Sequence record: PQ724393.1
Strand: one strand, 5' to 3'
DNA length: 64,000 bases
Origin: a phage
Position numbers and translations under genes: made by a program. A model generated the notes under the pieces. That model was not told the DNA's origin, did not search any database, and saw only the letters and a list, made by a program, of their open reading frames with translations. The first letter of the stretch is position 1. Each line of letters opens with the position of its first letter. Shown here piece after piece: positions 23,005 to 44,755 of this stretch.

Positions 23005-23025
23005 AATATTCTCCTCTCCTCCAAA

Positions 23026-23043
23026 TAGGGAGACCGAAGTCTC
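23026..23043 (-). terminator. hairpin, possible weak terminator
   Basis: GGGAGAC-CGAA-GTCTCCC; weak U-run. Confidence 0.4.
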
Positions 23044-23052
23044 CCAGTAACA

Positions 23053-23646: not shown

Positions 23647-23689
23647 AGTATTTCCTTCAGTTGGTTAACGTTTTGTAATCCATGAGGAC

Positions 23690-23719
23690 ATTATACCCTG
23701 TCCTCTGAGGGATGTAAAC
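23690..23719 (-). promoter_or_regulatory. sigma70-like promoter (GTTTAC-N18-GTATAAT)
   Basis: minus strand GTTTACATCC...GTATAATG upstream of gene at 23646. Confidence 0.5.
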
Positions 23720-23721
23720 AT

Positions 23722-24120: not shown

Positions 24121-24145
24121 TATGATCTCCTCAAATTATGGGCTC

Positions 24146-24175
24146 ATAATATCTTAATCATGGGCCCATGTAAAC
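24146..24175 (-). promoter_or_regulatory. sigma70-like promoter (GTTTAC-N18-TATTAT)
   Basis: upstream of 23722..24120. Confidence 0.45.
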
Positions 24176-24178
24176 GTT

Positions 24179-24457
24179 TTATTTCATATTATTGAAATAA
24201 TCTTCCGCATCAAAATCGTTATCATGATAAACTTTGGTAGACAATTTAACATAACCTTCGGCGGCGAACATATTAACCACAACCTTTACAGTATACCATT
24301 GTCCATCATCATTACCCATTACTGCATAGGTTTCAAATATGGGATGGTCATCACCGATAACTTTAATATCGTTAACTGTAGCACCAAATTCTTCAGGAAC
24401 GCATTTCATAAAGAAATTAAACAATTCACCATAATTATCCATTTTACTCTCCTTCAC
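24179..24457 (-). CDS. hypothetical small acidic protein (92 aa)
   Basis: ORF with GGAG RBS. Confidence 0.5.
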   Translation of the reverse strand: MKESKMDNYGELFNFFMKCVPEEFGATVNDIKVIGDDHPIFETYAVMGNDDGQWYTVKVVVNMFAAEGYVKLSTKVYHDNDFDAEDYFNNMK

Positions 24458-24477
24458 ACTGTTGTTTTGATAGGTCT

Positions 24478-24506
24478 ATAGTATCATGTTCTACGAAAGA
24501 GTAAAC
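24478..24506 (-). promoter_or_regulatory. repeated promoter-hairpin element (GTTTAC-N17-TACTAT)
   Basis: core TTGATAGGTCTATAGTATCA. Confidence 0.5.
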
Positions 24507-24530
24507 ATCTTTTTTAAACTTTTTAGAAAC

Positions 24531-24558
24531 AAAAAAGGCCCAACCTTTCGGAAGGGCC
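24531..24558 (-). terminator. rho-independent terminator (minus strand)
   Basis: A-run then GGCCC..TTCGG..GGGCC hairpin on plus strand. Confidence 0.6.
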
Positions 24559-24650
24559 TAGAATCAGTTCTTGTAGAACCGGAATGGGTTTATGTGGAAG
24601 GCTAACATAGCTTTTATTTTAAAAGTTTCATATATTTCTCTAAGTTAACC

Positions 24651-24670
24651 AAAAAAGCCCCAGACGGGGC
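24651..24670 (-). terminator. rho-independent terminator (minus strand)
   Basis: AAAAAA-GCCCC-AGA-CGGGGC immediately after IP-like gene stop. Confidence 0.7.
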
Positions 24671-24675
24671 TTTCG

Positions 24676-25140
24676 TTATTTGATTTGTTTAGCAGACCAG
24701 ATACGGTCTTTGATGATTTTCTGAATATCTTCAACATACTCTAAGTCGTGAGCATGCGGATTATCTTTGAAGCTATGTGCTCGTGCCAGTTTCTGGCCTT
24801 CTGTTTTGATTACTAAAAGCTCTTTAAGAATTGCTTCATACTTAGAAATGATTCCTTTAGCGATATTTTTTTCTTGAGCGGCTTTAGGGTCCGCTTTTGA
24901 CGCAGGTGCTTTACCTGTAGCTTTCTGGAACAATTCACCTGATGCAGCTAGGCTTTTAAAAACTCGGCTAACAGTATTAGCATTAGTAAAACCTTCGGCT
25001 TTAAAATCTTTAATAAAACGGAAACGTTCTTCATCAGAGGCGTCTTTGTAAGAATATTTACCTGCTTGAATTGCTGCAATCGCGGCGGCTTTTACATCTG
25101 AACTAGATTGTTCGGTCAAAAATTCATTGTAAGTTTTCAT
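24676..25140 (-). CDS. internal-protein-like protein with capsid targeting sequence (MKTYNEFLTE)
   Basis: CTS-like N-terminus; 154 aa, Lys/Ala-rich; located beside tRNA cluster, not at a canonical T4 ip locus. Confidence 0.6.
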   Translation of the reverse strand: MKTYNEFLTEQSSSDVKAAAIAAIQAGKYSYKDASDEERFRFIKDFKAEGFTNANTVSRVFKSLAASGELFQKATGKAPASKADPKAAQEKNIAKGIISKYEAILKELLVIKTEGQKLARAHSFKDNPHAHDLEYVEDIQKIIKDRIWSAKQIK

Positions 25141-25181
25141 TATTATTTCCTAAGTTAATTAACTTATCTATTTATTATGCC

Positions 25182-25209
25182 AAAAAGCCCCAACCTTTCG
25201 GAAGGGGCC
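25182..25209 (-). terminator. rho-independent terminator (minus strand)
   Basis: AAAAA-GCCCC..TTCGG..GGGGCC hairpin. Confidence 0.65.
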
Positions 25210-25589
25210 ATGCCTTGCGGTAACCTTGTCGGGGTTCCACCTGCTAGGCAAGTGTTTGTACGAAACGCCAGGATTCGAACCCGGTTATTAAGCAGTTGAC
25301 GCTACTCAATATTTTTAAAAGGCCATATCTCGACCATATCCGAACGTTCCGTCAAAAACGCTACTCGGCTTACGGCAAAGATATTTCCTCGAATCGATAA
25401 TTAGGTGCGCCGTTTCTGCTGTGATGTAAGGGGACATTAACAGATCGTAAAGATTTGTTAATGCCAGTCCTTACTCAGGGAACATCAGTCCGACGACTTA
25501 CCGGTAGCGACCCGGTTTCTTGTTTGTTGCGCCGGTGAATGCTGGTAATCAGTCTTCATACGACGGCTTGACTATATAATAGTCTTCAT

Positions 25590-25665
25590 TTGGTATCCCG
25601 CCCTGGGATCGAACCAGGACCGCAAACTTAGAAGGATCGTATGCTATCCATTACACCAGCGGGAC
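25590..25665 (-). tRNA. tRNA-Arg (anticodon UCU)
   Basis: minus strand GTCCCGCTGGTGTAATGGATAGCATACGATCCTTCTAAGTTTGCGGTCCTGGTTCGATCCCAGGGCGGGATACCA; cloverleaf foldable by eye, anticodon loop CTTCTAAG. Confidence 0.8.
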
Positions 25666-25670
25666 ATAGT

Positions 25671-25747
25671 TGGTGACCCGGACCAGATTTGAACTGGTAA
25701 CCTTTCCCTTATGAGGGGACTGCTGCTAACCATTGAGCTACAGGGCC
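25671..25747 (-). tRNA. tRNA with CAU anticodon (Ile-type as in T4, or Met)
   Basis: minus strand GGCCCTGTAGCTCAATGGTTAGCAGCAGTCCCCTCATAAGGGAAAGGTTACCAGTTCAAATCTGGTCCGGGTCACCA; anticodon loop CCTCATAAG. Confidence 0.75.
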
Positions 25748-25752
25748 TTAAT

Positions 25753-26019
25753 TTAAATTACAAATCCAGCAGGGGCATTATCATCTTTAGCCATGTGCTG
25801 AATTGTATGATAAGTCATTTCTTCAGGAGCAACCAGATAAGCCGCAACGTTAACTAGTGGAATTATTTTTGGTTTAGCGAACGTGCTATCAGAAATTGCC
25901 ATAAAGGGCTCGCCGTCGGTCTCAACTTCGCCAAATTGGCACTCGTAAGAAATAGAACAACGTTTGGTGGTGGTTGTCTTGGTTTTAGGGTCATAAAAAG
26001 CTAATTTTAATACTAACAT
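25753..26019 (-). CDS. hypothetical small protein (88 aa)
   Basis: ORF with GAGGT RBS. Confidence 0.45.
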   Translation of the reverse strand: MLVLKLAFYDPKTKTTTTKRCSISYECQFGEVETDGEPFMAISDSTFAKPKIIPLVNVAAYLVAPEEMTYHTIQHMAKDDNAPAGFVI

Positions 26020-26197
26020 AATACCTCAAATAAAATTAAGTAAAGTAAGTTTGATTAATAGACCTTGTCTATTATGAAAGGCTCTTTGAGGGAAGAACCT
26101 TTGGTAATAGAGGGTTACTTAATAATGTTAGAGTAATAATATCACATTACTCTTAAAGCATATTACTATTTTTAGGAATAGTCTGGTCAAATTTGAT

Positions 26198-27124: not shown

Positions 27125-28071
<947 letters not shown>

Positions 28072-28079
<8 letters not shown>

Positions 28080-28833
28080 TTTTATTTCCTAATAATTTAT
28101 CAATAGTAGTGTATAGTTCAGAAAGAGTGCCGTTATTTTCAACAACAACGTCACCAGGTAAAATTGGTAGACCCGCTTCAGTGATGTGCGAGTCTTGTAC
28201 TTGACCGGTTTCAGCGCGAACTACATGAATAATCGTAGCACCCATCGCTCTGAGCGAATCAATTTCGTGTGTTTGACGAACATCAGGTACGACATAGTAT
28301 TTCGCATCAGAGTATATTTTATCAAAATAGTCTAAAGCGAACAACTTAACCCAATACATCTTATCAAATTGGTTAACAATAATATCAGTCCCAAGGGTCT
28401 GCATGAGACGACGTACTGACCAATTGTTATTTTTATTTATTACTTCAAACAGTTGGTCTTTTGTTTCTTCAGACAGATACTGGACCGGGGTAAGACCATA
28501 ATGATATGCGGTACGAACATCCATTCCTGGAATAGGAAGGATATTATTCAGTTTGACAATAGCATTTTCAAAGATATCAATCACATCATATGGTTTTAAA
28601 GGAAGGATTTCTTCACGGTCGTAACCGATACCTTCAAAACAGTTAAAATCGAGTTTAGGCATATAACTACGGTCGAATACAGGGTCATCAGAGATGTATT
28701 CATAGGCTTCAGCCAGATACTTTTTAATAGGACCTGCTAGCTGAAATTTTACCGAATCCATATTTTCGATTACATAGTTAGCAACGGTATCCTTACCGCT
28801 ACGTTTGATTCCTACAATTGATATTAGTTTCAT
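28072..28833 (-). CDS. 1: deoxynucleoside monophosphate kinase (gene 1)
   Basis: MKLISIVGIKRSGKDT P-loop; T4 gp1-like. Confidence 0.9.
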
Positions 28834-29360
28834 TATTTTCTCATAGATGGATGCATAGACATACGAGCCACACGTTGTTCGGCGTACGAATCAATTTGTG
28901 GACGACCTGTAACTATTGTACCATCTATTTCTACAGCAAACGATTTGAAGTTGAATGTTGCTGTAGCGATTATCGCAGGGTCAGAATCTTCTTTATACGA
29001 GTACTGGATTTCCGAGAGGTCAGAGGGCCAACCGCCGTAGTAATGAATGCTCATTACGATTTTCTGTTTGTTGTTATCAAGGATGTGGAGCGTAATTGCT
29101 TCAGGTAAGCCTTTAGGATGCCAGGCTTCTGAATCATGGGTTACGTAGTTGTTTAATGATAACATCCACTTATAAACGTCAAGCCATGATTTCAATTCTT
29201 TGTCCACAAGAAAGTTCACGACCAATGGGTCGAATTCTACAGTAGAACCTGGCAGCTTAGCACGATGTATGCCCTGGGTCGATCCTGGGACGTCTGAGAT
29301 CGGAATATGGATACCAGGTAGTGTTACATCTTGTACGTTCAATTTGAATGACTGTGTCAT
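28833..29360 (-). CDS. 3: tail completion and sheath stabiliser (gene 3)
   Basis: position between genes 2 and 1; start chosen at internal Met giving 175 aa (T4 gp3 is about 176 aa); alternative start at 29423. Confidence 0.65.
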   Translation of the reverse strand: MTQSFKLNVQDVTLPGIHIPISDVPGSTQGIHRAKLPGSTVEFDPLVVNFLVDKELKSWLDVYKWMLSLNNYVTHDSEAWHPKGLPEAITLHILDNNKQKIVMSIHYYGGWPSDLSEIQYSYKEDSDPAIIATATFNFKSFAVEIDGTIVTGRPQIDSYAEQRVARMSMHPSMRK

Positions 29361-29505
29361 TCCTGAGTCACTAACCTCTAAGATAAAGTTAGTGGTGTTA
29401 GTTTGGTTAAATAAACCGTTCATAAGGTTCCTATATTGCTTAAGTCCCGGACAGTGTATAATGGTCCTAGGTCTGTTCCATTCAATAACTGGCTGGGATA
29501 ATAGA

Positions 29506-30333
29506 TTATGAATTCTTCCATACTTTCTGAGCTGAGTAACGCTTACCTTTAGACATAAATTGCTGAAGTGGAAGCATGACCACATTAGCCCAATCAGCAG
29601 GTTTTATCTCTACTAAAGGGCCCTTGATATTTCCAGGGATATAAGCCTTAATCATCACGTCTGCACCAGCGAATCCTTTTACCTTACTCCAATCGATTTT
29701 TAATTTAGTCGAGTTAGTAATGGTAGGCGTACTCGCGTATTGCTTCAGCAATTCTTCCAGAAATTGTTGACGTGCTTTAGGTGGAATATAGTGTAAGTTC
29801 AGTCCGTACATTAAATTATGCTTACCTAACCCAAGATAAATGATTAAAGGATATTTGTCCCAGTATGGTAGGGTATCCTTGTGCTTGGCGTCATAGATAT
29901 AAGCATAAAGCTTACCAGGAGATGGTTTAGATACCTGGTGTCCACGAATTCCTTTCTTTAATGTTTCTGTAAACCATTTAGCTGATTTATTGTTTACAGC
30001 GGCGCCTTCGTTAGCAATCTTATCACGAATACTCTTTCTAAAACTATTCACCAAAATTAATTGACGTTCGGCTTTGGTTAATTTATTGCCAGGTTTATTC
30101 TGAAGTTTTTCAACCTGTACAGCAGTTTTAATTCGACTCGAGTATCGAGACATCGCAGATGTAAAGCTAGAATACTTAATGCCTTTATCTTCAGCGAATT
30201 TCTTAGCCGAGACACCTTTAGCCTTAGCCTTGGCATATTCAACGCCTAAAGTTATCCATTGTTGTTCTGAACGAGTAGGCTTGGAACCTTTTGTGGTTTC
30301 AGTAGCCTCATTGATGTAGGAAAATATACTCAT
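29506..30333 (-). CDS. 2: DNA end protector protein (gene 2)
   Basis: position and size (about 275 aa from MSIFSY start) as T4 gp2. Confidence 0.75.
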
Positions 30334-30779
30334 CCTTTCCATCCTAATTTTTTCAGTGAATGTTCGGTAATCAATCTAAAGGTGATACCCATTTTATCTG
30401 CTGTAGCTTTAGCTGCTTTCCACTTATCAGTATTAACAGACCAAGTATAGTGTTCGTTGATATATCTCTTTTTAGCAGCCGTAGTCATTTTAACAGGCAC
30501 CGCAGGAGCATGGGTTTCTTTAAAAGGTTTGACTTCAAAAAAGAATTGTTGGCCTGTATCAAATTTAACCCAGAAGTCCATAAAATATCGTCTTTTCTTT
30601 CCTTCGGCATTGCAAAAGTATGGGATAACCACCTCTTCTGAATTCCACTGGACTACATTAGGATGGTTGTCAAGCCAACGCATAAACCATGCTTCCCAAG
30701 AGGAACGATATTGGATTTTCTTCCAATCACCTTTATATTTTTGTAAGTTTGTAGGTTTAAATTTCCCTGAGTAAGCCAT
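30330..30779 (-). CDS. 4: head completion protein (gene 4)
   Basis: MAYSGKF...QYRSSWE...[10 protein letters not shown] matches T4 gp4. Confidence 0.88.
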
Positions 30780-30790
30780 AGTTGCCTCCT

Positions 30791-30798
30791 TATAAATA
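30791..30798 (+). promoter_or_regulatory. late promoter TATAAATA for gene 53
   Basis: exact TATAAATA 28 nt upstream of ATG. Confidence 0.7.
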
Positions 30799-30805
30799 TT
30801 AATAT

Positions 30806-30813
30806 TATTTATA
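30806..30813 (-). promoter_or_regulatory. late promoter TATAAATA for gene 4 (divergent)
   Basis: TATTTATA on plus strand. Confidence 0.65.
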
Positions 30814-30825
30814 CTCGGAGGCCCT

Positions 30826-31428
30826 ATGCTCTTCTCATTTTTCGATCCTATCGATTACGAATCAAAAACAGTCAAGCCGGATTCAGGCTCATTAACAAAT
30901 GCCGATGTACTGAGCGTGCCGATGACTGATATATTTAGAAATTATAAAGAATATTTTGATAAAGTGGCTAAAAACTATACACTAAAGACTTATTATATCA
31001 ACGGGGCCCCTCGTCCAGAAGAATTGGCTAATCAACTTTATGGTAATGTCCAATTATATTGGGTTTTATTGATGTGTAATAATATATACGACCCTTATTA
31101 CGGCTGGATTACAGGCCAAGAAGTTGCATATCAAGCGGCAATCCAAAGATATTCTACTGCAGGTGGCAATCAAGTTCTTTATCATGTTAATGAAAAGGGT
31201 GAGAAATTCTGGAATCTTGTTAATACTCCAGAAAACCCATATACTTGGTATGATAAAGGTGATACAGAAAAACGTTATCCTCAATATGAGGGCCCTTTGG
31301 CTGCAGTAGATATTTACGAGGATGCTATTCGTAAAAATGAATATAAGCGCGAAATAAAGATTGTGGACCCTAATGATATTGAGTCCTTTATTTCTGCCCT
31401 TATTCGCGAAATGGAGAAAGCCCTCTAA
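30826..31428 (+). CDS. 53: baseplate wedge protein gp53
   Basis: MLFSFFDPIDYE...; T4 gp53-like throughout. Confidence 0.9.
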   Translation: MLFSFFDPIDYESKTVKPDSGSLTNADVLSVPMTDIFRNYKEYFDKVAKNYTLKTYYINGAPRPEELANQLYGNVQLYWVLLMCNNIYDPYYGWITGQEVAYQAAIQRYSTAGGNQVLYHVNEKGEKFWNLVNTPENPYTWYDKGDTEKRYPQYEGPLAAVDIYEDAIRKNEYKREIKIVDPNDIESFISALIREMEKAL

Positions 31429-33215
31429 TGATTAACATGTCTGATAATGTAAGTTGGTTCGTCGGTGTAGTTGAAGACCGAATGGACCCGCTCAAACAAG
31501 GCCGAGTACGTGTACGCGTATGGGGTATGCATCCCTATGAAAAGGTACAAGGCCCTGTAAAAGGTCTTCGTACAGAAGATTTACCATGGATGTCGGTATT
31601 AATGCCTACATCTTCGGCCTCTGTTTCAGGTATACAAACCGCTATGACCGGTATGGTCCCAGGTACACAAGTTTATGGCCACTTTCTTGATAAGTGGAAA
31701 TTAAACGGACTTGTCCTCGGTACATACGGTTCTGCATCAAAACAAAAAGCAAACCCTAATGAAGGTTTTAGCGACCCAACAGGCCAATATCCACTTTATT
31801 TAGGTAACGATGCCGCTGCACTAAACCGAGGTGGTGAAGTTGGATATGATGCCACTTCTAACGTAATCCAGGATTCTAACCTAGATTTAGGTATTAATCC
31901 TGACGGTTTAGATTTAAGTCAAGTCAAGCCTGACGATAATCCTAATTTCACAATAGAAAACATGCTTCACCGTGATGAAGGGCTTCGACTGAAGGTATAT
32001 TGGGACACCGAAGGTTATCCTACTATCGGTATAGGTCACCTTATTACGCCACAACCTATTAGAGATATGAACCAAATAAACAAAATATTGTCTAAACAAA
32101 TAGGTCGAGAAGTTAAAGGTAACCCTGGCGCAATATCAATGGATGAGGCTTCTAAATTATTCCAAGAAGACCTTAAAAAAGTCCAAAGCGATATAGGTCG
32201 ACATAGTGTTGTGGGTCCGGTTTACAATAAAGAAAACCGTTCAAGACAAATGGCTCTTGAAAACATGGCTTTCCAAATGGGTTTAGGTGGGCTTGCTAAA
32301 TTCCGTGGTATGCTCAGTGCTATGCTAATAGGCGATTATAAAAAGGCATTTGAGGAAGCTCGTAATTCAGTGTGGTTCAACCAAACTAAGGGCCGTGCAT
32401 CAAGGGTATCAATGATTATCCTTACAGGTAACATGGAATCATACGGTATTATGGCCCCTAAAGAAAGGTCATTTAAAGGGCGTTCGTATAGAATGATTCA
32501 AACTTTTGCCGCACCTGCAAATTCAGACCCAGCCGACCCATGGACCCCAGAAGATACAAGGATTCTGTTTAAAGAGCCAGAATCAAGTTACAAGGGCGAA
32601 TATCCTTACGTGCAGACAATGCAAACTGAAGGTGGGCATATCCAAGAATTCGATAACACCCCAGGGCAAGAACGTTATCGTTTAATCCATCCTACAGGTA
32701 GTTATGAAGAAGTTGCTCCTGATGGCCGCAAAACTTCTAAGACGGTAGCCGATGGTTATTATATGACCCAAGGCGATTCTAATACTTATGTCGGCGGTAA
32801 TAATAAAGTCAACATAGGCGGTGATGAAACATATTATAATATGGCTAACGTTCGCCGTCAGACCGACGGAAACGAAAGCATTCATATTCGAGGGAATGAA
32901 ACCAAAACTGTAGAAGGTAATGGAACTCTGCTTGTTAAAGGAAATGTTAAAATAGTTATTATGGGTACTGCTGATATAACTGTTGAACAAGAAGCATATA
33001 TTACGGTTGAAAAAGATACAACAGTTAATGTCAACCAGAATGCAGATATAAGCGTTAAACAAAAGGCCACAATAAATGCTCAAAATATGGATGTAAATGT
33101 CGAACAAGATTTAAATTTTGCAGCGACGAACATTAATTTAAACGCATCAAATACTGTGCATATGGATGGCGGTTCATTAGCTAAAGTATCTGGTGGCAAC
33201 GTACAGGTCGGTTAA
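31428..33215 (+). CDS. 5: baseplate hub and tail-associated lysozyme gp5
   Basis: N-terminal OB domain, central T4-lysozyme-like domain (YWDTEGYPTIGIGHLI), C-terminal beta-helix repeats (VxGxxxxx). Confidence 0.95.
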   Translation: MINMSDNVSWFVGVVEDRMDPLKQGRVRVRVWGMHPYEKVQGPVKGLRTEDLPWMSVLMPTSSASVSGIQTAMTGMVPGTQVYGHFLDKWKLNGLVLGTYGSASKQKANPNEGFSDPTGQYPLYLGNDAAALNRGGEVGYDATSNVIQDSNLDLGINPDGLDLSQVKPDDNPNFTIENMLHRDEGLRLKVYWDTEGYPTIGIGHLITPQPIRDMNQINKILSKQIGREVKGNPGAISMDEASKLFQEDLKKVQSDIGRHSVVGPVYNKENRSRQMALENMAFQMGLGGLAKFRGMLSAMLIGDYKKAFEEARNSVWFNQTKGRASRVSMIILTGNMESYGIMAPKERSFKGRSYRMIQTFAAPANSDPADPWTPEDTRILFKEPESSYKGEYPYVQTMQTEGGHIQEFDNTPGQERYRLIHPTGSYEEVAPDGRKTSKTVADGYYMTQGDSNTYVGGNNKVNIGGDETYYNMANVRRQTDGNESIHIRGNETKTVEGNGTLLVKGNVKIVIMGTADITVEQEAYITVEKDTTVNVNQNADISVKQKATINAQNMDVNVEQDLNFAATNINLNASNTVHMDGGSLAKVSGGNVQVG

Positions 33216-33216
33216 T

Positions 33217-35280
33217 ATGAATTACTACGATAAAGTTGATGAAGTGGTAGGGACTGTAACAAGTCCCTGTGATGACGCAGTAGGACCTGGTGAATATCGC
33301 CGGGTTAAATGGGAATTATATAACCCAACAGGTGCTTTTATTCAACCCGGGAATGGCGTTGAATGGGATACCGAGATTATTCCACTAGCTACACATTTAT
33401 ACACACAAAATCCATTTGGTAATAAGTCCGAAACTTTTCCTGCACCTCCCCCGCCGGAAGATGGAACAAGTCAAGGTATCTGGTGTGCTAAACTCGGAAT
33501 ATTCTTTATTACGCAATTGGATTTAGAAAATTATGTAGAATCGATTGGTGCAACTCTTTTGCCCGGTAATGATTGGTACGGCGCTGATTTATCAAAATCT
33601 GTATTGTATAAAACATCTATTGAATATGATATGTATCGCATCGAAAACTGTGGCGGTGTATGGACGTCACAAGGCCCCAGAATGGACCCCAGGACGATGA
33701 TTGCAGTTACGGCTGATTATCATATGTATGTCAACTTTAACGGCCTTGGTGACTCCCGCAGGGCTTATTTGAAGTACTATGAGACAAAACCTTGTACTTA
33801 TGTTGGACTGGTATTAAATCTAGATGTTGATATGAGTATCCCAGGAACTCCGATTCCAGGACCAGTATCCATCGGGTCTTTACCACCAGAAATAACCGGG
33901 CGAGCCAGGGCAATAAGCTGTGTTCCTTTTACAGCGGAATTCCCTTACAACGGATTGACCAATGCGATTATGGCTTCATGGAATACATCTAGGAATTCAT
34001 TCAAATTATATTGGGATATGCTCCCTGGATGGCCATCATCTGGTGGAACCGATTGGGAAAAATTCTTCGATTCCGGTTATAGTAAGCTATCGGTCGCAAT
34101 GGAAGAGCTAGGCAACTCAGCTGTTGCTATGTGTCAATATGTTCAGCAAATGGCTTTTCTTGCATTTAAAGATGCCATATCACAGGTCTTGGATATTGTT
34201 GGTGGTGGGTGGGACTTACTTAAAAGCTTTTTACCCTCGATTACTATTATGGGCATGACTATTGACCTGGAAGACCTCTGCACTTCAGGTGATGGTGTAC
34301 AGAAATTAAAAGAAGCATGGAAAAACTTTAATTTAGAAGAAACCATCCAATCGATTTATTCTGCCATTGGGTCGGCATACGATTATTCGGTTGAACGCGT
34401 CAAGATGTATTCGCGTGACCTTATTGATGCAATTACAGACTTGTATGACTGGGCCTGGTCTCAATTGCTTATGGCTGGTGTTGCATTATCAAAACTGTGT
34501 GTAGACCTCGCTCAAATATGGAGTATGCCTCCTATAGTTCCGAACCCAGTTTGGAGCGTTATTACTGCGGTCAAGGAAATGATGAAGCAAGTTAAACCAC
34601 TGGACATGATAATGAGCGGTAACTTTCCAGGATTCACGGCATCAGATGTTTATCAAATGGTTATGGAAAAGGTAGACCAGAAAATAGACGAAGCTTATGC
34701 AATGATTGAGGCTCTTAAAACCCAGGCACTCAATCTGTGGAATGAGATTAAGCTCAAAAAGCAAGAAGTACAAAAACAAGCTATTGAATTTAAACAATAT
34801 CTTTCAGGAATGTACGAAAAAGTTACAGACGAGCTAACTGCTCAGAAGGAAGCCGCATTAGCACAAGCTGAAGCTGCACTTGAACTTTTAAAGAATAAAT
34901 ATAAACAGATTAAGAACTCTATTACCGAAAGTCAAACCTCCGTTTCTGATGTATTAGATATGGCTTTAGAAGAATTCAAAAAACTTCCTATTGTGGCTCA
35001 AATGGAAGAACTTCTCGGTATGCTCGGAGCTACTGTAGATGATATCATGGTTATATACGAGAACTCAGTAACTAAAGCAAAATCTTTATATCACGAATTT
35101 ACTGATGGTTCCAGGTCAATGAAAGACTTGTGCAAATCAATGTATAACCAAATATCAACATTATCCTTAAGTAAGGTGGTACAATGGATTAATAAGATGC
35201 TGGGAATATTCGGTTTAACGATTGCATTTCCATCCCTTTCCATTTGCATACCTTGTTTAGAATCTCCTACTAGGAATTAA
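33217..35280 (+). CDS. large hypothetical protein (687 aa) in the gene 5 to gene 6 interval
   Basis: ATG at 33217 directly after gp5 stop; C-terminal third strongly coiled-coil; hydrophobic extreme C-terminus; no PAAR motif. Confidence 0.75.
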   Translation: MNYYDKVDEVVGTVTSPCDDAVGPGEYRRVKWELYNPTGAFIQPGNGVEWDTEIIPLATHLYTQNPFGNKSETFPAPPPPEDGTSQGIWCAKLGIFFITQLDLENYVESIGATLLPGNDWYGADLSKSVLYKTSIEYDMYRIENCGGVWTSQGPRMDPRTMIAVTADYHMYVNFNGLGDSRRAYLKYYETKPCTYVGLVLNLDVDMSIPGTPIPGPVSIGSLPPEITGRARAISCVPFTAEFPYNGLTNAIMASWNTSRNSFKLYWDMLPGWPSSGGTDWEKFFDSGYSKLSVAMEELGNSAVAMCQYVQQMAFLAFKDAISQVLDIVGGGWDLLKSFLPSITIMGMTIDLEDLCTSGDGVQKLKEAWKNFNLEETIQSIYSAIGSAYDYSVERVKMYSRDLIDAITDLYDWAWSQLLMAGVALSKLCVDLAQIWSMPPIVPNPVWSVITAVKEMMKQVKPLDMIMSGNFPGFTASDVYQMVMEKVDQKIDEAYAMIEALKTQALNLWNEIKLKKQEVQKQAIEFKQYLSGMYEKVTDELTAQKEAALAQAEAALELLKNKYKQIKNSITESQTSVSDVLDMALEEFKKLPIVAQMEELLGMLGATVDDIMVIYENSVTKAKSLYHEFTDGSRSMKDLCKSMYNQISTLSLSKVVQWINKMLGIFGLTIAFPSLSICIPCLESPTRN

Positions 35281-35281
35281 A

Positions 35282-37240
35282 ATGGCTACTCCTACGAATT
35301 ACCAATTAACAAGAACCGTTAACGCTATCCCAAAAGTATTTGTGGGAGCTACGTTTGAAGAAATTAAAAAGAATATTATAGACTGGCTTTCTAGCCAGGA
35401 CGAATTTAAGGATTATGATTTCGTTGGTTCTCGAATGAATATCCTTATTGATATGCTTGCTTATAATACCCTTTATATGCAGCAATTTGCTAACACCGCT
35501 TTATACGAATCTTTTATAGGAACTGCAAACCTTCGTTCTTCGGTTGTCCAGGCTGCACAAGATAATGGATATCTTCCTAGTTCTAAATCCGCGGCAAAAA
35601 CTTCCGTAATGCTTACGTGTACTCAGGCTCTTAATGAAAAGAATATTCGTATTCCACGTGGTACTAAATTCTTGGCTTATGCTCGTGATACTTCAGCCGA
35701 TCCATATGCCTTTGTGACCACTGATAACGTTATTGCAGTGCGTGACGTTAATAACCAGTACTGGCCCATTGTTTCTCTGGCTCAAGGACGTATTATTCGT
35801 ACCGAACTTAAATACGACCCTAAAACTCCTATTCTTATTCGTGACCCGGATATTGATAGACAAGAAGTTAAACTTTATGTTGATGGGGCAGAATGGATTA
35901 ACTGGACCGATAAATCAATGGTTCACGCTGGTAGCACCTCGACAATTTACTATATGCGCGAAACCGTAGATGGTAATACCGAATTCTTCTTTGGTGAAGG
36001 TGAAGCCGAGAAATCTGTTGCAGGCGGAGTATTAGAAGCTAATTATATCGGCGGTCTAAAACCTGTTAAAGATTCTACCATTGTTATAGAATACCTTCGT
36101 ACAGACGGTGAAGTTGCAAACGGTGCAGTTGACTTCAGTTATGCTGACTCCTTGGCTTATATTACTGTAGAAAAAATTACTGAAAACTATAACGACGACC
36201 CTGATTATGTCGGTGCTGATGGTGGTGGTGACCCTGAAGATATCGAACGTATTCGTGAATTGGCCGTAGTTAAGCGTGAAGCGCAGATGCGTGCTGTAAC
36301 AGGAACCGACTATGATACATTCGTATCTGAACGTTTTGGCTCTATTGTACAAGCAGTACAAACCTTTACAGACCCAAATAAACCAGGTTATGCTTTTGTC
36401 ACCATTAAACCTAAATCAGGGCTATATTTGACAGCCGTCCAACGTGAAGACATCCAAGACTACCTAAAAGAATTTAACTTAGCCCCTATTACCGCTTCTG
36501 TTATTTCTCCTGATTATTTGTTCTTAAAGCATAAAATTAAGGTATCGTATGCCTTGAATAAATTACAGGAATCTGAACAGTGGCTGTCGGCTCAAATTCT
36601 TTCTCAGATAGACCGTTATTATATTAACGAAGTAGAAATTTTTAACCATGGATTCGCTAAGTCAAAAATGCTGACTTATATTGATAATGCTGACCATAGT
36701 ATTTTAGGCTCCTCTGCTACCGTAACAATGGTTCGTGAGGTATTGAACTTTTTCAAAACCCCTGAATCAGGTATTAAATACTATAATCAATACACTAACC
36801 GTTCTGTGGTTTCTAGTGAATTTGAGTTTGTCCCTACTATCGTTTCTGAAGACAGTCCTGCGTATAATGTCAGAATTGCCGCTACAGATAAAGACGAACG
36901 TGGTGATGGTAAAATGGTTATTGGTCCTTTCCGTCCAGGAGATGTAATTGAAAACCAATATATTAAACCATATACAGGAAATGACTTTGATAAAATGCCT
37001 GCTCCTGCAGACCAATCCGTTTATTACGTTATAGGTGAAATTGATTATTATTCAGATTTCATTTTCTGGGACATTGCGGCTATCGGTTTAACGTCCGATC
37101 GTTTTGAAGTTCAATCTATAGAACTTTATGCGGGACCTGACCAAGACAACATCTTTACAAAAGACGGTTCGTTAATCGTATTTGAAGATGACCTCCGCCC
37201 TCAATACACGACCATTGAATTAGAACCTATTACAATATAA
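35282..37240 (+). CDS. 6: baseplate wedge protein gp6
   Basis: colinear with T4 gp6 (MATPTNYQLTRT...). Confidence 0.9.
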   Translation: MATPTNYQLTRTVNAIPKVFVGATFEEIKKNIIDWLSSQDEFKDYDFVGSRMNILIDMLAYNTLYMQQFANTALYESFIGTANLRSSVVQAAQDNGYLPSSKSAAKTSVMLTCTQALNEKNIRIPRGTKFLAYARDTSADPYAFVTTDNVIAVRDVNNQYWPIVSLAQGRIIRTELKYDPKTPILIRDPDIDRQEVKLYVDGAEWINWTDKSMVHAGSTSTIYYMRETVDGNTEFFFGEGEAEKSVAGGVLEANYIGGLKPVKDSTIVIEYLRTDGEVANGAVDFSYADSLAYITVEKITENYNDDPDYVGADGGGDPEDIERIRELAVVKREAQMRAVTGTDYDTFVSERFGSIVQAVQTFTDPNKPGYAFVTIKPKSGLYLTAVQREDIQDYLKEFNLAPITASVISPDYLFLKHKIKVSYALNKLQESEQWLSAQILSQIDRYYINEVEIFNHGFAKSKMLTYIDNADHSILGSSATVTMVREVLNFFKTPESGIKYYNQYTNRSVVSSEFEFVPTIVSEDSPAYNVRIAATDKDERGDGKMVIGPFRPGDVIENQYIKPYTGNDFDKMPAPADQSVYYVIGEIDYYSDFIFWDIAAIGLTSDRFEVQSIELYAGPDQDNIFTKDGSLIVFEDDLRPQYTTIELEPITI

Positions 37241-37268
37241 GCCTCTTAGGAGGCTTTGAGGAGATTTA

Positions 37269-40200
37269 ATGTCTGTGCAAGCGCCTTCCGTTACTAGTTT
37301 GAGAATTGATAAACTCTCGGCTAACCATGTAAGTATTCTTTGGGATGACGTAGGCGCCAATTTCTATTATTTCGTAGAACTGGCCCAAACCAAGGATGCG
37401 GGTGAATCTATACCCGATGATAAGTTATTTTGGAGAAATTTAGGTTACACCCCGAACAATAACTGGTTCGAAGAAAGATTTATTTCTCCTAATTCGTTTT
37501 ATAAAATGCGTGTCGCTGTAGCTGCTCAAGGATTTGAACAATCTGAATGGGTTTATACAGAAGAATTCGAGACATTTTCTACTAACGCATATACCTTCGA
37601 GCATATGCGTGAATTTACTTTATCCAATAAATTCATTGAAGAAAAATTTACCAAAAATAACCAGAGTTACGTGGATTTTAATAGTGACGCTATTATGGCC
37701 TCTATGATGTCCGAAGATTTTACTTGGACTCCGGCATATTCACACCTTTCTTCAATTTCTAATTATGTATTAAAGGCTGACCGCTTCCATGAGATTCAAG
37801 GAAGTATCCAAGCTGTTTGTAAAGACCCTAATCGTTCCATTTTAATGGAGCTTGGTGGTGTACTTTACCTTTTAGAAAGATTCCAGAACACAGCTAAGGT
37901 ATCCAATGATAAGGCCCAGAACTGGCATTATATCCGTTTGTTTAATGACCGAGTAGGTAATCCAGTTTCACGTACGGCTCATTATCAAACAGACACCACA
38001 ACTTATGTTTTAGGTTATGACCGTATATTTTACGGACGTAAATCGAGCGATATCAGATGGTCTGCTGATGATGTACGTTTTAGCTCACAAGACGTGACAT
38101 TTGCTAAAATTGGTAGTGATATCGACCTTGATTTTGAAATTGAAATTTTTGGTTCTTATGCACGTTTGCCATTGGCTATTTCTACTATCGCAGAAGCTAT
38201 GTGTGCTTCGGATGATTTTATTTACGTTGCAGCCCGTGACAGAGTTTATAAAGCAAAAACTACTGATGCTCCTATTGACACCGACCCAGGTTCTCCTACT
38301 TACGGTGAAAAAATATTTGAAAGCGGATATTCGACCATAACCGGTAACCCTAAAGCAGTTTGTTATAAGTTAGACTCAATCCAAGGAAATACCTTTGCCT
38401 TAATTACAGGTGAAGTTAAAGAAGAAAGAATGGACCCTACTAAAGAAGAAAACGTGGTTGATTCTGAATCTAAAGGTGTTTATTGGTTGGATGCCGAAAC
38501 CGATACATGGACCAGAGTATTTGGTAACACTGAAGAAGAGAGACGTCGTATTGAGCACGGGTACACTAGCATGTCTACCGATGGCGAAGAAATATTCTTT
38601 AGCTCAAGTAACTTCAAATATGAAGTAGAAGTTGATAACGAATTACCTTTAGAATACCCTATTGTGGCCTCAGCGGTAAAATATGTTAAGGACGAACAGT
38701 GGATTCACGATAAACATTATCTGATGATGAGCTTTAGAGCTAACAGTAAGTCAGATTTTAAAGAATTCAAACCTGGTCGAATGGGCTATTATGCTGAACC
38801 ATTCTTTAGTTGGTCTAGACGCGACGGGACCCGTTCTTGGATTACCACAAGTAATCATGCAATGGTTGTTTATAACGATGCCTTATACCAGAAAATTATT
38901 GATTTAAACAGTGGTTCTTCTCCTGAACGTATTATTCGTGAAATTTGGGATAAAGGCTTTTGTACCGTAACATGTCCTAATATCGAATTCAATGGATTTA
39001 AAAAATACTCTTCAGGTATAATGATTCACAAATCATCAGGTGAATTGGTTGGATATTTCGAGTTCGACTACCGAGTTCGAGATGAAGTTAAAATAATTTG
39101 GAAGCCTAAAGAAATAATGTTTACGGCTGAACTCCAAAACCAAGAGCATGAAATTCCATGGACCCCTAAAGAGGAAACTGGTGAACAAGACCCTGATTTG
39201 CGTCCTTTATTGGTTAAAATGGTTCCCGATAGTTATTTGCTTCAAGATTCTAACTTTGAAAAATTCTGCGAATATTATCTCCAGTTTATTAGTGATGGCT
39301 CCGGTACCCATTATAATAATCTATTAAATCTTATTCGTAACCAATATCCTAGAGAAGAAGATGCATGGGAATACTTATGGTCTGAAATCTATAAACGCAA
39401 TATCTATTTGTCTAAAGAAAAACGCGACGAAGTAGTTCGTTTCTTCCAAGCAAGACAATCGGATTTCTGGTCTACAAAAGGTACCGAAGCTTCATATAAA
39501 TTCCTGTTTAAATTACTTTATAACGAAGATGTTGAAATTGACATCGAGTCCAAGAACTCGATTGAATATGATATCATCGTAGAATCTGACAATATCAGTG
39601 AAGATATCGTGGGCCAAACGATTTATACTCCTACAGGAAGAAGTAATGTTACTTATATAGAACGAAATTACAAAGAGGGTAAATTGCAATGGCGTTTAAC
39701 CATTCACAATCTTTTAGGCCGTTTTATAGTAGGACAAGAGATTAAATCTGAACGCACCTCATTTAAAGGTATGATAGTGCAGGGTGTACGCGGTAAAGAA
39801 TTGTTAAGTAACAATATCGATTATATTAACCGTAACCGTTCTTATTATGTTATGACTATTAAATCCAACCTCCCTACTTCTCGATACCGTAATGACGTGT
39901 TGAGATTTGTCCACCCTGTAGGATTTGGCTTTATAGGGATTACGTTGCTTTCTATGTTTGTTAACGTTGGTTTGACATTAAAGCACACGGAAACCATTAT
40001 TAATATACTTAAGAACTATAAGTGGGACTCAGGTCTTCCATCCGAGTGGTACGATAGAGTTGCTGTAATCGGATTTGATGGTAATATAGAAAGAGACCCT
40101 AGAACAGGACTTCCGGTTTATAACGTTGGGCCTAAAGCAGGCGAACCGTTCCCTATTCCTAATGATTATGATGCAGAAAATGATTTCTCTGTATTCCAAG

Positions 40201-40361
40201 GTCAATTACCTCATGAACGTATTAAAAAGCATAGTCCTTTATTTGACCAAAGTGCAGTAACATTTTCAAAATGGCGCGCTTTAGTTGACGATAGGCTTAA
40301 AGCTGATATTGGAAACCCTAGAGACCCGCAAGACCCAACTCAGGTAAAAATTGATGATTAA
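37269..40361 (+). CDS. 7: baseplate wedge initiator gp7
   Basis: 1030 aa, position and size as T4 gp7. Confidence 0.9.
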   Translation: MSVQAPSVTSLRIDKLSANHVSILWDDVGANFYYFVELAQTKDAGESIPDDKLFWRNLGYTPNNNWFEERFISPNSFYKMRVAVAAQGFEQSEWVYTEEFETFSTNAYTFEHMREFTLSNKFIEEKFTKNNQSYVDFNSDAIMASMMSEDFTWTPAYSHLSSISNYVLKADRFHEIQGSIQAVCKDPNRSILMELGGVLYLLERFQNTAKVSNDKAQNWHYIRLFNDRVGNPVSRTAHYQTDTTTYVLGYDRIFYGRKSSDIRWSADDVRFSSQDVTFAKIGSDIDLDFEIEIFGSYARLPLAISTIAEAMCASDDFIYVAARDRVYKAKTTDAPIDTDPGSPTYGEKIFESGYSTITGNPKAVCYKLDSIQGNTFALITGEVKEERMDPTKEENVVDSESKGVYWLDAETDTWTRVFGNTEEERRRIEHGYTSMSTDGEEIFFSSSNFKYEVEVDNELPLEYPIVASAVKYVKDEQWIHDKHYLMMSFRANSKSDFKEFKPGRMGYYAEPFFSWSRRDGTRSWITTSNHAMVVYNDALYQKIIDLNSGSSPERIIREIWDKGFCTVTCPNIEFNGFKKYSSGIMIHKSSGELVGYFEFDYRVRDEVKIIWKPKEIMFTAELQNQEHEIPWTPKEETGEQDPDLRPLLVKMVPDSYLLQDSNFEKFCEYYLQFISDGSGTHYNNLLNLIRNQYPREEDAWEYLWSEIYKRNIYLSKEKRDEVVRFFQARQSDFWSTKGTEASYKFLFKLLYNEDVEIDIESKNSIEYDIIVESDNISEDIVGQTIYTPTGRSNVTYIERNYKEGKLQWRLTIHNLLGRFIVGQEIKSERTSFKGMIVQGVRGKELLSNNIDYINRNRSYYVMTIKSNLPTSRYRNDVLRFVHPVGFGFIGITLLSMFVNVGLTLKHTETIINILKNYKWDSGLPSEWYDRVAVIGFDGNIERDPRTGLPVYNVGPKAGEPFPIPNDYDAENDFSVFQGQLPHERIKKHSPLFDQSAVTFSKWRALVDDRLKADIGNPRDPQDPTQVKIDD

Positions 40362-41384: not shown

Positions 41385-41392
41385 TATAAATA
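41385..41392 (+). promoter_or_regulatory. late promoter TATAAATA for gene 9
   Basis: exact match upstream of ATG 41419. Confidence 0.65.
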
Positions 41393-41418
41393 CAGTATAT
41401 CAATAATGAGGCATACCT

Positions 41419-42279
41419 ATGATTAAGCAAACTGGTAAGTTACTAATTGACGTCGGTGAGATTGGTAATGCTAGCACCGGCGACATTCTTTATGACGGTG
41501 GCGTTAAACTGAACACCGACTTAAACAACATCTATAATACTTTTGGTGACCAACGTAAAACAGCCCTTACGGGTGAAACCACCGGTCAAAAATTACATGC
41601 CACTGGATACTATCAAAAATTCGGCGATACCGACCAAGCGGGTTCTGTTGATTTAGGCTCTTTGGTGGATGTCGATGCTTCTACCGGTTCTATAGTTTTA
41701 ACAACCGTAAAAGGAGCTGTAGGTGAAGGTATTGAAATAATTAACTCTAATGGAAGTATTTCAGCTACTAACTATCTTGAAATCCGTATATTGGATTCGT
41801 TTTTGAACCATCCTACATCGGCCTTAAGAATAGTAACTCCTTATACTCGAGTTCTTTTATGGTGTGTAAGCGATATAAACGGTATAGCTGTATGGGATTA
41901 TTCTATTGAGAGCATGTTTGGTGACAAACGAGTACCATTAAATAGAACATATAACATTTCCAACGTACCTAGAGATATACCGGTGGTTTATTCAGGTCAA
42001 TATTCTTTAGTTAAGCTTTTGGTTACGGCAGTAAATGCCAATGAAACCGTTTATAAAGCTTCTGAATATCTTTTGTTTATGGATAACCAAGCTAAAAAAA
42101 TATATTCCACGGAATATGCTGTTATCCGTCGTGGACAAGCCACTGATGAAGACGAAATTTACAATCTCGATTTTAAATTTGATGCATCCAACTATATAGT
42201 GGCTACGGCATCATCTGAAACCCCTATGAGATTAGCAATTAAAGTCGTAGATACCCAAACTATTGGAGTCCCAGTATAA
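41419..42279 (+). CDS. 9: baseplate wedge tail fiber connector gp9
   Basis: size and position as T4 gp9. Confidence 0.85.
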   Translation: MIKQTGKLLIDVGEIGNASTGDILYDGGVKLNTDLNNIYNTFGDQRKTALTGETTGQKLHATGYYQKFGDTDQAGSVDLGSLVDVDASTGSIVLTTVKGAVGEGIEIINSNGSISATNYLEIRILDSFLNHPTSALRIVTPYTRVLLWCVSDINGIAVWDYSIESMFGDKRVPLNRTYNISNVPRDIPVVYSGQYSLVKLLVTAVNANETVYKASEYLLFMDNQAKKIYSTEYAVIRRGQATDEDEIYNLDFKFDASNYIVATASSETPMRLAIKVVDTQTIGVPV

Positions 42280-44090
42280 TGAAACAAGAATTAAAAATCG
42301 GCCAGGCCGTTGATGATGGCTCCGGAGATTACCTGCGCGCAGGTGGTCTAAAAATCAATAATAACTTTAATGAGTTATACTATCAATTAGGTGACGGAGA
42401 TAATCCTCACGCTGCTGGTGCCTGGAAACAATATTCTACTGCAGACGGTCCTTTACTTAATGCTGTTATGGGTCATAGCTATACATTGAATACCCAAGGT
42501 GGAAGGATTAACGTTCAACTTCCTAAAGGCACTCCATCAGAATATAACTTTGTAATTCGTTTACGTGACGTTTATTCTTCTTGGCAAGCTAACCCTGTGA
42601 CTATTATACCAGCCCCAGGTGATACAATTAAAGGTTCCGCTGTACAGGTTGAAATAGCTCGTAATTTTGCCGACCTTGAACTTGTTTACTGTGCCCCGGG
42701 ACGTTGGGAATATGTTGAGAACAAGCAAGTTAACCGTATTCCAAATAACGACCTCGCTACTGTAGCAACTAAACAGTTTATTGCTACTGAAGGTCAAACT
42801 GATTTCTTGGATATTTTCCCAGGCCTAACCTATAATATTTCAAGTCTTAGCGTTATCCAACGTGGTAACACCTTGTTCTACGGGGTGAATGATATATTTG
42901 ATGAAGCTACTTCTGAGTTTGGTAGCCCAGGTACAAACCCAGGCGAATTGGTTGAATTGAACGGTAAAGATATCCGTTTGAAATATCCTTGTGAAGCCGG
43001 CGATACGGTAATTATTAAATCGTATAACGATGGATTGGCCCAATGGCGCAGTTCTTATAATCGTCGTGATATTACTATTTTAGATACGACCCTTACCCAT
43101 GAAACCACAGTTAACGGTTCTAAAGTAGTATTAGACCTTTCTACCGTACAGACTATTACATCAGCAGAATTAAATGTTTCTCCTACAAGCCCTATTAACC
43201 CTAATGCTTGTCAGGTAATGCTTAATAGTACTTTATTGCACCAAGCTGGTACTGCCGGATTCCCTGCTTTCTATTGTGAAGGTGTTGATACGGATGATGC
43301 AGGCCTTTGTGCAGATTCAGGTGGTGTATGGACCCAATCTAAATCCGATTATATTTTGAATATTGCAGATGACGATAAAATCGAGTCATTTGAATTTGGA
43401 CGTAAACTGGAACATGGTGATATCCTTACTGTAATTTGGTATAACAATGATATTGGTACCACTATGACTATTGATGAGATTTTAGATACCACAAATGATA
43501 TCTATATTTCTCAAGGTCCTTCAGTATCTTTAACCGGTCGGGTTCGTATTACTGATGTGGATAATCCATTTTCTCCTAACTTTGAACCTGTAGCAGAATC
43601 TGAAGTTTCTATTAATACGGCAGCAGTGATGTTTGATTTGTTCCACCCTATTGGAACGATTTATGAGAACACCGTGAACCCTAATAACCCTGCAACTTAT
43701 ATGGGTATGGGTAGTTGGAAAAGACTGTCTGATAGTTTCCTTGTAGGTTGGTCTCCGGACGCCGATTCATTGTTCAATGCGAACAATAACGATTTAGATT
43801 CTGGCGGTGCTCCTAAATCTACTGCAGGTGGTACGGGTGGTTCTCATAATATTTCCATTAAATATGAAAACGTTCCTGAACTTAATACAGATGACAAGGT
43901 ATTAGTTGCCGATGATAACGGCCCTATTGTTATTGGCGGATGTTTGGTAGACCCGGATGCCCAAGGCCCGGCTTATACAAAATATCGTGAAGATAAAGCT
44001 ACGATAAACAAACAGCAATCTACAACGCCTATTCCTATTGGCACTTTGCCTCCATATACAACCGTTTATCGCTGGGTGAGGATTGCGTAA
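42279..44090 (+). CDS. 10: baseplate wedge and short tail fiber attachment protein gp10
   Basis: size and position as T4 gp10. Confidence 0.85.
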   Translation: MKQELKIGQAVDDGSGDYLRAGGLKINNNFNELYYQLGDGDNPHAAGAWKQYSTADGPLLNAVMGHSYTLNTQGGRINVQLPKGTPSEYNFVIRLRDVYSSWQANPVTIIPAPGDTIKGSAVQVEIARNFADLELVYCAPGRWEYVENKQVNRIPNNDLATVATKQFIATEGQTDFLDIFPGLTYNISSLSVIQRGNTLFYGVNDIFDEATSEFGSPGTNPGELVELNGKDIRLKYPCEAGDTVIIKSYNDGLAQWRSSYNRRDITILDTTLTHETTVNGSKVVLDLSTVQTITSAELNVSPTSPINPNACQVMLNSTLLHQAGTAGFPAFYCEGVDTDDAGLCADSGGVWTQSKSDYILNIADDDKIESFEFGRKLEHGDILTVIWYNNDIGTTMTIDEILDTTNDIYISQGPSVSLTGRVRITDVDNPFSPNFEPVAESEVSINTAAVMFDLFHPIGTIYENTVNPNNPATYMGMGSWKRLSDSFLVGWSPDADSLFNANNNDLDSGGAPKSTAGGTGGSHNISIKYENVPELNTDDKVLVADDNGPIVIGGCLVDPDAQGPAYTKYREDKATINKQQSTTPIPIGTLPPYTTVYRWVRIA

Positions 44091-44755
44091 TGACTTTAAC
44101 AGAAATGAAAAGCGGGTTAAAATCCCGCCTTGCCGACTTTTTAGAATTTTCTTTTACAACTAATCAACCTGCCGCAGTGGCAGGTCAACGCCCTATTGGT
44201 GGTCCATCGGCAAACCAAACCCAAAAAGGTGTTTATTACCCTACGGTCCAAAGTGCTATTGATGATATTGCTTTCCGTGCAGAACTTCCTGTCAATGCAG
44301 TGGTAACTACTACTGAAAACAGGGCACCTGGCTTTATTCAACAATCAGATAAATTAACTTTCTCCGGCTCCATTTCTTCTGGTGGCGAATTAGGCGATAC
44401 GGTTATTATTAAGGTATTCGGTTTGCCTGTTGAAGTTATTGTGGGTGATTCTTCGGTCCTGGTTGCTTCTAAAGTTAACGATGCTTTTATAAGCGCTATT
44501 GCCGATAGTTATATTTTGGCAGAAACGTCTATCGACCCTCTAGACCAGTCTACTTTAAACATTAAATATAACGACTACCAAAACCATATTTTTGAGCCAT
44601 TTAAACAAGCAGGATGCACCATTTCTCAGACTATAGTTCAACAGCCTCGCGCAGGTTATGGATACTGGGAATATTTAGGTTCTACTACAGAATCTATGAC
44701 AGGTGGAACCGTAAATGGAACAACAACCTTATATCACTATAAGCGAGTAAGTTAA
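44090..44755 (+). CDS. 11: baseplate wedge protein gp11
   Basis: size and position as T4 gp11. Confidence 0.85.
   Translation: MTLTEMKSGLKSRLADFLEFSFTTNQPAAVAGQRPIGGPSANQTQKGVYYPTVQSAIDDIAFRAELPVNAVVTTTENRAPGFIQQSDKLTFSGSISSGGELGDTVIIKVFGLPVEVIVGDSSVLVASKVNDAFISAIADSYILAETSIDPLDQSTLNIKYNDYQNHIFEPFKQAGCTISQTIVQQPRAGYGYWEYLGSTTESMTGGTVNGTTTLYHYKRVS

Follow-up and report, generated by a model that had tools for sequence, protein, structure and literature searches.

The PAAR cone is treated as the universal tip of contractile tails. In phage T4 it takes the form of gp5.4 (PAAR, PF05488, PDB 4KU0), which shares the interval between genes 5 and 6 with gp5.1 and presumably closes off the gp5 trimer at its blunt end as one asymmetric protein. 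In the phage DNA considered here, a window of 64,000 nucleotides from sequence record PQ724393.1, the same interval holds a single large open reading frame (ORF) encoding 687 amino acids (aa; 33217-35280, + strand), a putative non-PAAR spike tip. We estimate at about three in four the probability that its product is indeed a spike-tip protein, probably present in a single copy and capping the gp5 trimer in place of both gp5.4 and gp5.1. This view is based on the homology to orf205w of phage RB43, on the position between genes 5 and 6, on the absence of PAAR, and on the pairing of the large ORF with a particular gp5 end.

The closest described systems are those of RB43 and of Klebsiella phage Helios. 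RB43, RB16 and Lw1 have no gene 5.4, and the 5.1-5.4 slot of RB43 is filled by orf205w, a protein of ~690 residues, of which 1-220 are of mixed alpha/beta structure and the remainder helical (Mattenberger et al., bioRxiv 2025, PMC12407873, section 9). [quoted passage not shown] In Helios, the gp202/gp203 pair was modelled with AlphaFold3, with the last gp5 strand in hydrophobic contact with a triple coiled-coil core (residues 287-327, 398-440 and 631-670) and with a loop at the distal end of the tip protein (Viruses 2026, PMC13611949). Both papers propose that the family represents a large non-PAAR spike tip replacing gp5.1/gp5.4, and the main identification of the family is thus already in the literature, as a hypothesis. 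Described in neither of them are the exact boundaries of the exchangeable cassette that carries the large ORF, its exchange between T-even genera and its strict pairing with the gp5 end motif; to these can be added a confident structural model, an N-terminal domain without a known fold and the narrowness of the family, modest but useful additions.

How does the locus in the window compare with these systems? The large-ORF product is a full-length orthologue of RB43 orf205w (BLASTP, 43% identity over 687/690 aa, E=0) and matches phrog_5296, a family of 'unknown function', from position 1 to 684 of 685 with E=0. With RB43 orf205w and Helios gp203 it shares the position after gene 5, the length, the layout of secondary structure and the gp5 end motif, and, like the RB43 genome, the window phage is devoid of 5.1 and 5.4. 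Unlike RB43 orf205w, however, the copy in the window belongs to the genome of a true T-even phage (Tevenvirinae, Dhakavirus), the nearest relatives of which possess PAAR, and it is visibly a swapped-in cassette, 99% identical to a Gaprivervirus copy. The initial annotation, made from the sequence of the window, had called the ORF unexplained, a description that is out of date given the published spike-tip proposal for the RB43 orthologue. It had also allowed for the ORF turning out to be a known T-even gene with a defined function; this proved half right, in that the gene and the hypothesis are known, whereas the function has only been proposed.

The ORF listing of the window confirmed the single large ORF between genes 5 and 6 as one uninterrupted frame at 33193-35280 (+), 695 aa long if counted from a GTG codon and 687 aa from the ATG at 33217. 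Because the homologues begin at an equivalent Met-Asn/Asp-Tyr, with M1 and Y3 nearly invariant in the alignment, the ATG at 33217 is likely the start. Pfam matches confirmed gp53, gp5 and gp6 within the T4-like gene order noticed at the outset, and the tight packing of the ORF between its neighbours holds as well: one nucleotide separates it from gene 5 (...GGT TAA T ATG) and one from gene 6 (...AAT TAA A ATG), which runs from 35282. With full-length homologues in 216 phage records and a ratio of nonsynonymous to synonymous substitution rates (dN/dS) of 0.04-0.10 against near-identical copies, the large ORF is not a chance frame, and this range of dN/dS shows purifying selection.

The closest copies are those of Escherichia phage fDHCT2, whose 'hypothetical protein' is 100% identical, and of WG01 (Dhakavirus wg01, Tevenvirinae; 99.7%). 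The 216 records of the phage collection, which answer the question raised initially of whether the ORF occurs in other T-even genomes, come mostly from Klebsiella, Escherichia, Enterobacter, Cronobacter and Citrobacter hosts and amount to ~1 in 5 T4-like records (216 of about 1150); nearly all annotate the homologue as a hypothetical protein, although its similarity to RB43ORF205w was remarked on as early as in the 2010 GenBank record of SP18. The homologue lies between genes 5 and 6 in WG01, KP15, Roth90, RB43, SG1, SP18, PM2 and GuL6. A profile search of 1.84 billion protein cluster representatives returned eight full-length clusters of the family, and all those examined adjoin a gp5-like gene; among the same representatives there were no relatives outside T4-like phage contexts, such as type VI secretion systems (T6SS) or other myoviruses. 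Some members (phT4A, NC_055712.1, 101438-102904; BFVD entries A0A193GZA2, A0A7T3TJJ6 and A0A7T3TJK5) appear to be truncated or split: in phT4A the match takes in only residues 193-682, in a 485-aa protein, and in one phage there are two halves, 359 and 340 aa long, that look adjacent; these could represent sequencing frameshifts or real disruptions.

The small (~100 aa) conical beta-structure that characterises PAAR tips is not what the large ORF encodes. Even at E<=1 Pfam gave no match to PF05488 (PAAR), and hhalign of the large-ORF family returned probabilities of 0.2% for gp5.4 and 0.15% for gp5.1, in agreement with the lack of a PAAR-like pattern recorded in the initial annotation. Because the profile comparison gave such low probabilities, the large ORF is a non-homologous replacement of gp5.1/gp5.4 and not a diverged fusion of the two. 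The idea that a string of 5.1-5.4-like genes might have been obscured by sequencing frameshifts can be ruled out, given the absence of gp5.1/gp5.4 homology and an ORF that is intact in >200 genomes. Might a PAAR gene have moved elsewhere? The gp5.4 and gp5.1 proteins of the PAAR-carrying phages UP19 and MN01 were used in tblastn, and a hidden Markov model (HMM) was built from 55 gp5.4 relatives, and both were run against every ORF of >=40 residues, in six frames, from the window together with what remains of the WG01 genome. Neither gp5.4/PAAR nor gp5.1 was found in this search space (best E 1.7 by tblastn and 1.8 by HMM, with controls at 1e-58 or better), so that the absence of a 5.4-like ORF first noted for the 5-6 interval extends to the whole window and to the remainder of WG01, with the reservation that a negative result with a gp5.4-based HMM leaves room for a very divergent PAAR. 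Compared with T4 gp5.4, whose slot and presumed job it would share, the large-ORF product resembles it neither in sequence nor in fold, has seven times its size, is helical instead of a beta pyramid, shows no Cys/His metal site pattern, and would need a different gp5 C-terminus.

Against the sister Dhakavirus UP19, blastn gave 92.3% identity over 28003-32987 and 85.8% identity over 35271-40261, and no similarity between 32987 and 35271. In UP19 and in the Gaprivervirus MN01 the corresponding interval is taken up by the end of a T4-type gene 5, ~60 codons long, followed by gene 5.1 (165 aa) and by gene 5.4 (97 aa), whose product is by Pfam a true PAAR protein; the gp5.4 of UP19, which served as the control, matches PF05488 at 1.4e-9. 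Gene 5.1, located at 7778-8275 of the compared UP19 and MN01 segments, is thus lost together with gene 5.4 in the swap, and the large ORF and 5.1/5.4 are mutually exclusive in the genomes. In the window, the block comprises the last 76 codons of gene 5 and essentially the entire large ORF, and constitutes an exchangeable spike-tip cassette of 2.3 kb (32988-35270, +). Its right junction coincides with the ribosome-binding site of gene 6 (35282-37240, +; baseplate wedge, identified by Pfam), similarity to the PAAR-type sister phages resuming at 35271, and the left one with the point at which the match to the T4 Gp5_trimer_C profile ends in the gp5 of the window (residue 518). Gene 5 itself (31428-33215, +) encodes a baseplate hub, tail lysozyme and beta-helical spike protein of 595 aa with Pfam matches to Gp5_OB, Phage_lysozyme and Gp5_C.

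Across 32988-35270 identity of the window reaches 99.0% with SP18 (Gaprivervirus) and 99.3% with WG01. In the flanks, which comprise gene 6 on one side and gene 53 with the N-terminal portion of gene 5 on the other, it amounts to only 72-87% for SP18 and 87-92% for WG01. This near-identical island in diverged backgrounds indicates recent horizontal exchange, that is, recombinational spread of the cassette between lineages. SG1, which is filed under Tequatrovirus, carries the large ORF at a uniform 66-71%, and the large tip is thus present in members of three Tevenvirinae genera whose congeners carry PAAR. Beside this, it may be mentioned that in gene 5 and the large ORF the window agrees with fDHCT2 at 99.8% of positions, that outside the cassette it is only ~87-92% identical to WG01 although both are placed in the same species-level group, and that SP18, which shares the cassette, is assigned to Gaprivervirus; taxonomy labels fit the mosaic structure poorly.

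What travels with the large ORF is a distinct gp5 end. The cassette-specific last 76 codons of gene 5 (75 residues plus stop; 32988-33215, +, beginning after the UP19 blastn breakpoint at 32987) encode an RB43-type beta-helix end, ...GGSLAKVSGGNVQVG. In the alignment the gp5 of the window terminates in ...DGGSLAKVSGGNVQVG, as in RB43 and KP15, and PAAR phages terminate in ...IDGSRIDIG; it thus has the extended RB43-type end (...GGxVxVG) and not that of T4. A tblastn search with the 75 cassette-encoded residues retrieved 216 phage records, with a genus and host breakdown identical to that of the large-ORF set, and no match in the roughly 900 other T4-like records; gp5 end and large ORF are thus found together in 216 of 216. 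The pairing extends to the three most divergent members of the family, all metagenomic and one of them 31% identical to the query, each of which is preceded by a gp5-like gene ending in ...FTGGTVSVG, ...FTGGTVVVG or ...VTGGTVKVG. The most divergent one (JGI metagenome contig Ga0620835_007198) follows a 389-aa gp5-like protein (219-1391) with an OB domain and beta-helix and no match to a lysozyme domain; the large tip is therefore not tied to a lysozyme-bearing gp5. Among the arguments from sequence for contact between the two proteins, this pairing of gp5 end and large ORF is the strongest.

The product of the large ORF, roughly 77 kDa and mostly helical, was modelled with AlphaFold2 from a 55-sequence alignment with a mean predicted local distance difference test score (pLDDT) of 86.7, a predicted template modelling score (pTM) of 0.77 and no segment below 50, a confidence clearly above that reported for the RB43 orf205w model. 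An autonomous N-terminal alpha/beta domain (residues 20-200; 33274-33816, +) stays confident when modelled alone, has no PDB neighbour as an AlphaFold2 model and represents no known fold. Confidence drops when residues 201-293 are isolated, which suggests that they form a linker packing on the helical body. The body contains three core helices (helix 1, residues 294-328, 34096-34200, +; helix 2, residues 398-435, 34408-34521, +; helix 3, residues 631-664, 35107-35208, +) that coincide with the Helios triple coiled-coil core, helix 1 with the gp203 segment 287-327 (PMC13611949, Fig. 15 legend), and of which helix 3 is the most conserved segment of the protein (majority fraction 0.78). The body further contains a long helical hairpin (residues 475-529 and 538-575; 34639-34941, +), which substantiates the coiled coil initially predicted at about residues 480-560. 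Its first arm of 55 residues would measure ~8 nm and the hairpin overall about 6-8 nm in the model; the arms are the least conserved part of the protein and the core is its most conserved, and the apex, QYLxGMWExVT (residues 527-541; 34795-34839, +), is conserved in the alignment, with Q527, Y528, M532 and T541 nearly invariant among homologues. This is the predicted distal tip loop, the 'loop at the tip' of PMC13611949.

In Klebsiella phage Roth90 the homologue bears a different label, being annotated as a tail length tape measure protein. Apart from that one pipeline annotation, tape-measure families of PHROG match the helical region weakly (E 1e-3 to 0.03), but these matches are limited to coiled-coil-like sequence and far weaker than that to phrog_5296, and the PAAR-type sister phages have the same tail without the large ORF. 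With a separate gp29 in WG01 (ORF195), a tape measure function is effectively excluded. As for recognisable domains, Pfam returned only sub-threshold coiled-coil noise for the large ORF and NCBIfam no match.

At the other end of the protein, the hydrophobic extreme C-terminus pointed out in the initial annotation (35209-35262, +) is real, with a Kyte-Doolittle 19-residue maximum of 1.87 at residue 662, yet it does not look like a typical transmembrane helix: in the model, residues 673-682 take the form of a beta strand. Because of this strand, and because homologues alternate polar residues around a conserved Pro and Cys, a transmembrane helix is unlikely. Another reading is that the large-ORF product would be, instead of or besides a passive tip, an ejected membrane-active protein, carried on or near the spike and freed into the periplasm, where its helices and hydrophobic segments would enter the inner membrane to provide a conduit for DNA, or where it would meet a periplasmic target. 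The comparison in this respect also took in alpha-helical pore formers and translocators (IpaB, YaxB/XaxA), the points at issue being a hydrophobic hairpin that inserts into membranes and a likeness of fold going beyond any generic helical hairpin. Although compatible with a role as tip, such a function seems to us improbable; of the two roles originally put forward, structural add-on to the hub or spike and ejected effector, it is the add-on to the spike that is best supported.

How might a large spike tip of this kind operate? The protein would dock on its cognate gp5 end (the last ~75 residues, ...GGxVxVG), its one-chain three-helix core and hydrophobic C-terminal strand being seated on the three-fold gp5 platform and its globular N-terminal domain lying at the side of the tip. 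The hairpin would be directed away from the tail, toward the cell, with the aromatic and hydrophobic loop at its apex (YLxGMW) foremost. Upon sheath contraction the apex would enter the outer membrane ahead of every other part of the virion, and the tip would afterwards come free in the periplasm together with the spike, a fate shown for the P2 spike (PMC12407873). Such specific docking would account for the constant joint inheritance of the gp5 end and the large ORF and for their exchange as one 2.3-kb cassette, with recombination on the left inside the gp5 beta-helix repeats and on the right at the start of gene 6. The identity of the RB43 tip density, the 1:3 stoichiometry, the gp5-docking face and the role of hairpin and apex are inferred.

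Several points weigh against this picture. Placement of the large protein in the virion rests on the RB43 map and the AlphaFold model fitted to it, and that map has a resolution of only 17.7 Å and is C6-averaged; for the docking face and the stoichiometry, the basis is an AlphaFold3 model that others made of the Helios homologue. The RB43 authors themselves say that the tip is 'possibly' encoded by orf205w, and their attempt at co-expression and co-purification of orf205w with a gp5 beta-helix fragment failed (PMC12407873). A PDB sequence search with the large ORF gave no match, no structure of the family having been solved, and in the literature no report of virion proteomics, nor of genetics, was found for any member; the only mass spectrometry paper found on Klebsiella T4-like phages (PMC13119998) concerns Jiaodavirus phages that are not shown to carry the large ORF. 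Finally, plain linkage would also lead to co-inheritance of adjacent sequences, although more than linkage is suggested by a left breakpoint that falls sharply within gene 5 and by a pairing that stays perfect over identities of 31-99%.

Could the large ORF instead encode an assembly factor or chaperone that is not part of the virion and that folds or trims the RB43-type gp5 end, the RB43 tip density then being something else? The strict co-variation with the gp5 C-terminus would be explained in this way, and the failed co-purification and the lack of virion proteomics in the literature would be in keeping with it. A 77-kDa chaperone dedicated to 75 residues would, however, be unusual, and the beta-helix of T4 gp5 folds without a chaperone. 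Nor could any other gene of the cassette supply the larger tip density of RB43, and the search for PAAR in the window and the rest of WG01 left no other tip candidate in the genome. We consider a chaperone role highly unlikely.

As a putative tip, the large-ORF product finds partial parallels in other contractile systems. In phage P1, the helical tripod UpfB sits on the PAAR protein UpfC (PMC13611949, citing PDB 9VZK). Going by that description, UpfB resembles the large-ORF product in being alpha-helical with a distal loop and in extending the membrane-attacking end of a contractile-tail spike; it differs in being an add-on to a PAAR tip and in its three copies, whereas the window phage has no PAAR and would form its three-helix core from one chain. 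With the Apex domain of P2 gpV and the VgrG-PAAR effector tips of T6SS it would share the principle that the tip is an exchangeable module and makes the first contact with the membrane. By way of difference, the P2 tip is fused to the spike and binds iron, and PAAR proteins of T6SS carry toxin domains.

A further thought is that the tip may be a horizontally exchanged module of infection specificity and not a passive sharpener. The N-terminal domain or the apex loop might then recognise or destabilise a component of the envelope, be it the lipopolysaccharide (LPS) core, a layer of capsule, or a partner in the periplasm or inner membrane, and T-even phages might exchange cassettes of the 'PAAR + 5.1' kind for those of the 'large tip' kind, both including a matching gp5 end, in order to adapt penetration to different hosts. 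We offer this as a tentative idea, possible but rather doubtful. If true, the penetration device would be a second determinant of host range beside the tail fibres. The way in which contractile tails breach the outer membrane is as yet understood only in part, and the family is of practical relevance in that most of its members are phages of Klebsiella, Enterobacter, Cronobacter and Citrobacter considered for therapy. Pairs of near-isogenic Dhakavirus and Gaprivervirus phages, distinguished chiefly by the type of tip, amount to a natural experiment, and with the exact junctions for chimeras defined, the effect of the tip on host range, on infection of LPS mutants and on fitness is directly testable.

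With regard to its expression, the large ORF is probably translationally coupled to its neighbours as part of a late structural operon, here inferred for the 53-5-ORF-6-7 late transcript. A T4-type late promoter box, TATAAATA (30791-30798, +), stands ahead of gene 53 (30826-31428, +; baseplate wedge, PF11246, E 1e-72) and is the sole + strand box before the large ORF, the next one being at 41385. In total the window contains 15 such boxes against 7.8 expected, a number reached in 2/100 shuffles; 12 of the 15 are on the + strand, and 11 of these 12 lie at 41385-61279, in the structural gene region.

Two further features of the WG01 record were seen in passing. At 121345-127457, adjoining the cluster of baseplate hub and tube genes, there are three tandem genes for Alt-like RNA polymerase ADP-ribosyltransferases (ORF199-201, about 630-710 aa each). 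A second segment, 21952-26102, holds a cluster between ORF41 ('DNA repair protein') and the imm/DNA polymerase genes, with ORF42-46 annotated as a hypothetical protein, thymidylate synthase, thymidylate kinase, phosphoheptose isomerase and a 557-aa hypothetical protein; another thymidylate synthase gene (ORF236) is found beside the dihydrofolate reductase gene (ORF237), and the ORF42-46 cluster may represent a nucleotide or DNA-modification module.

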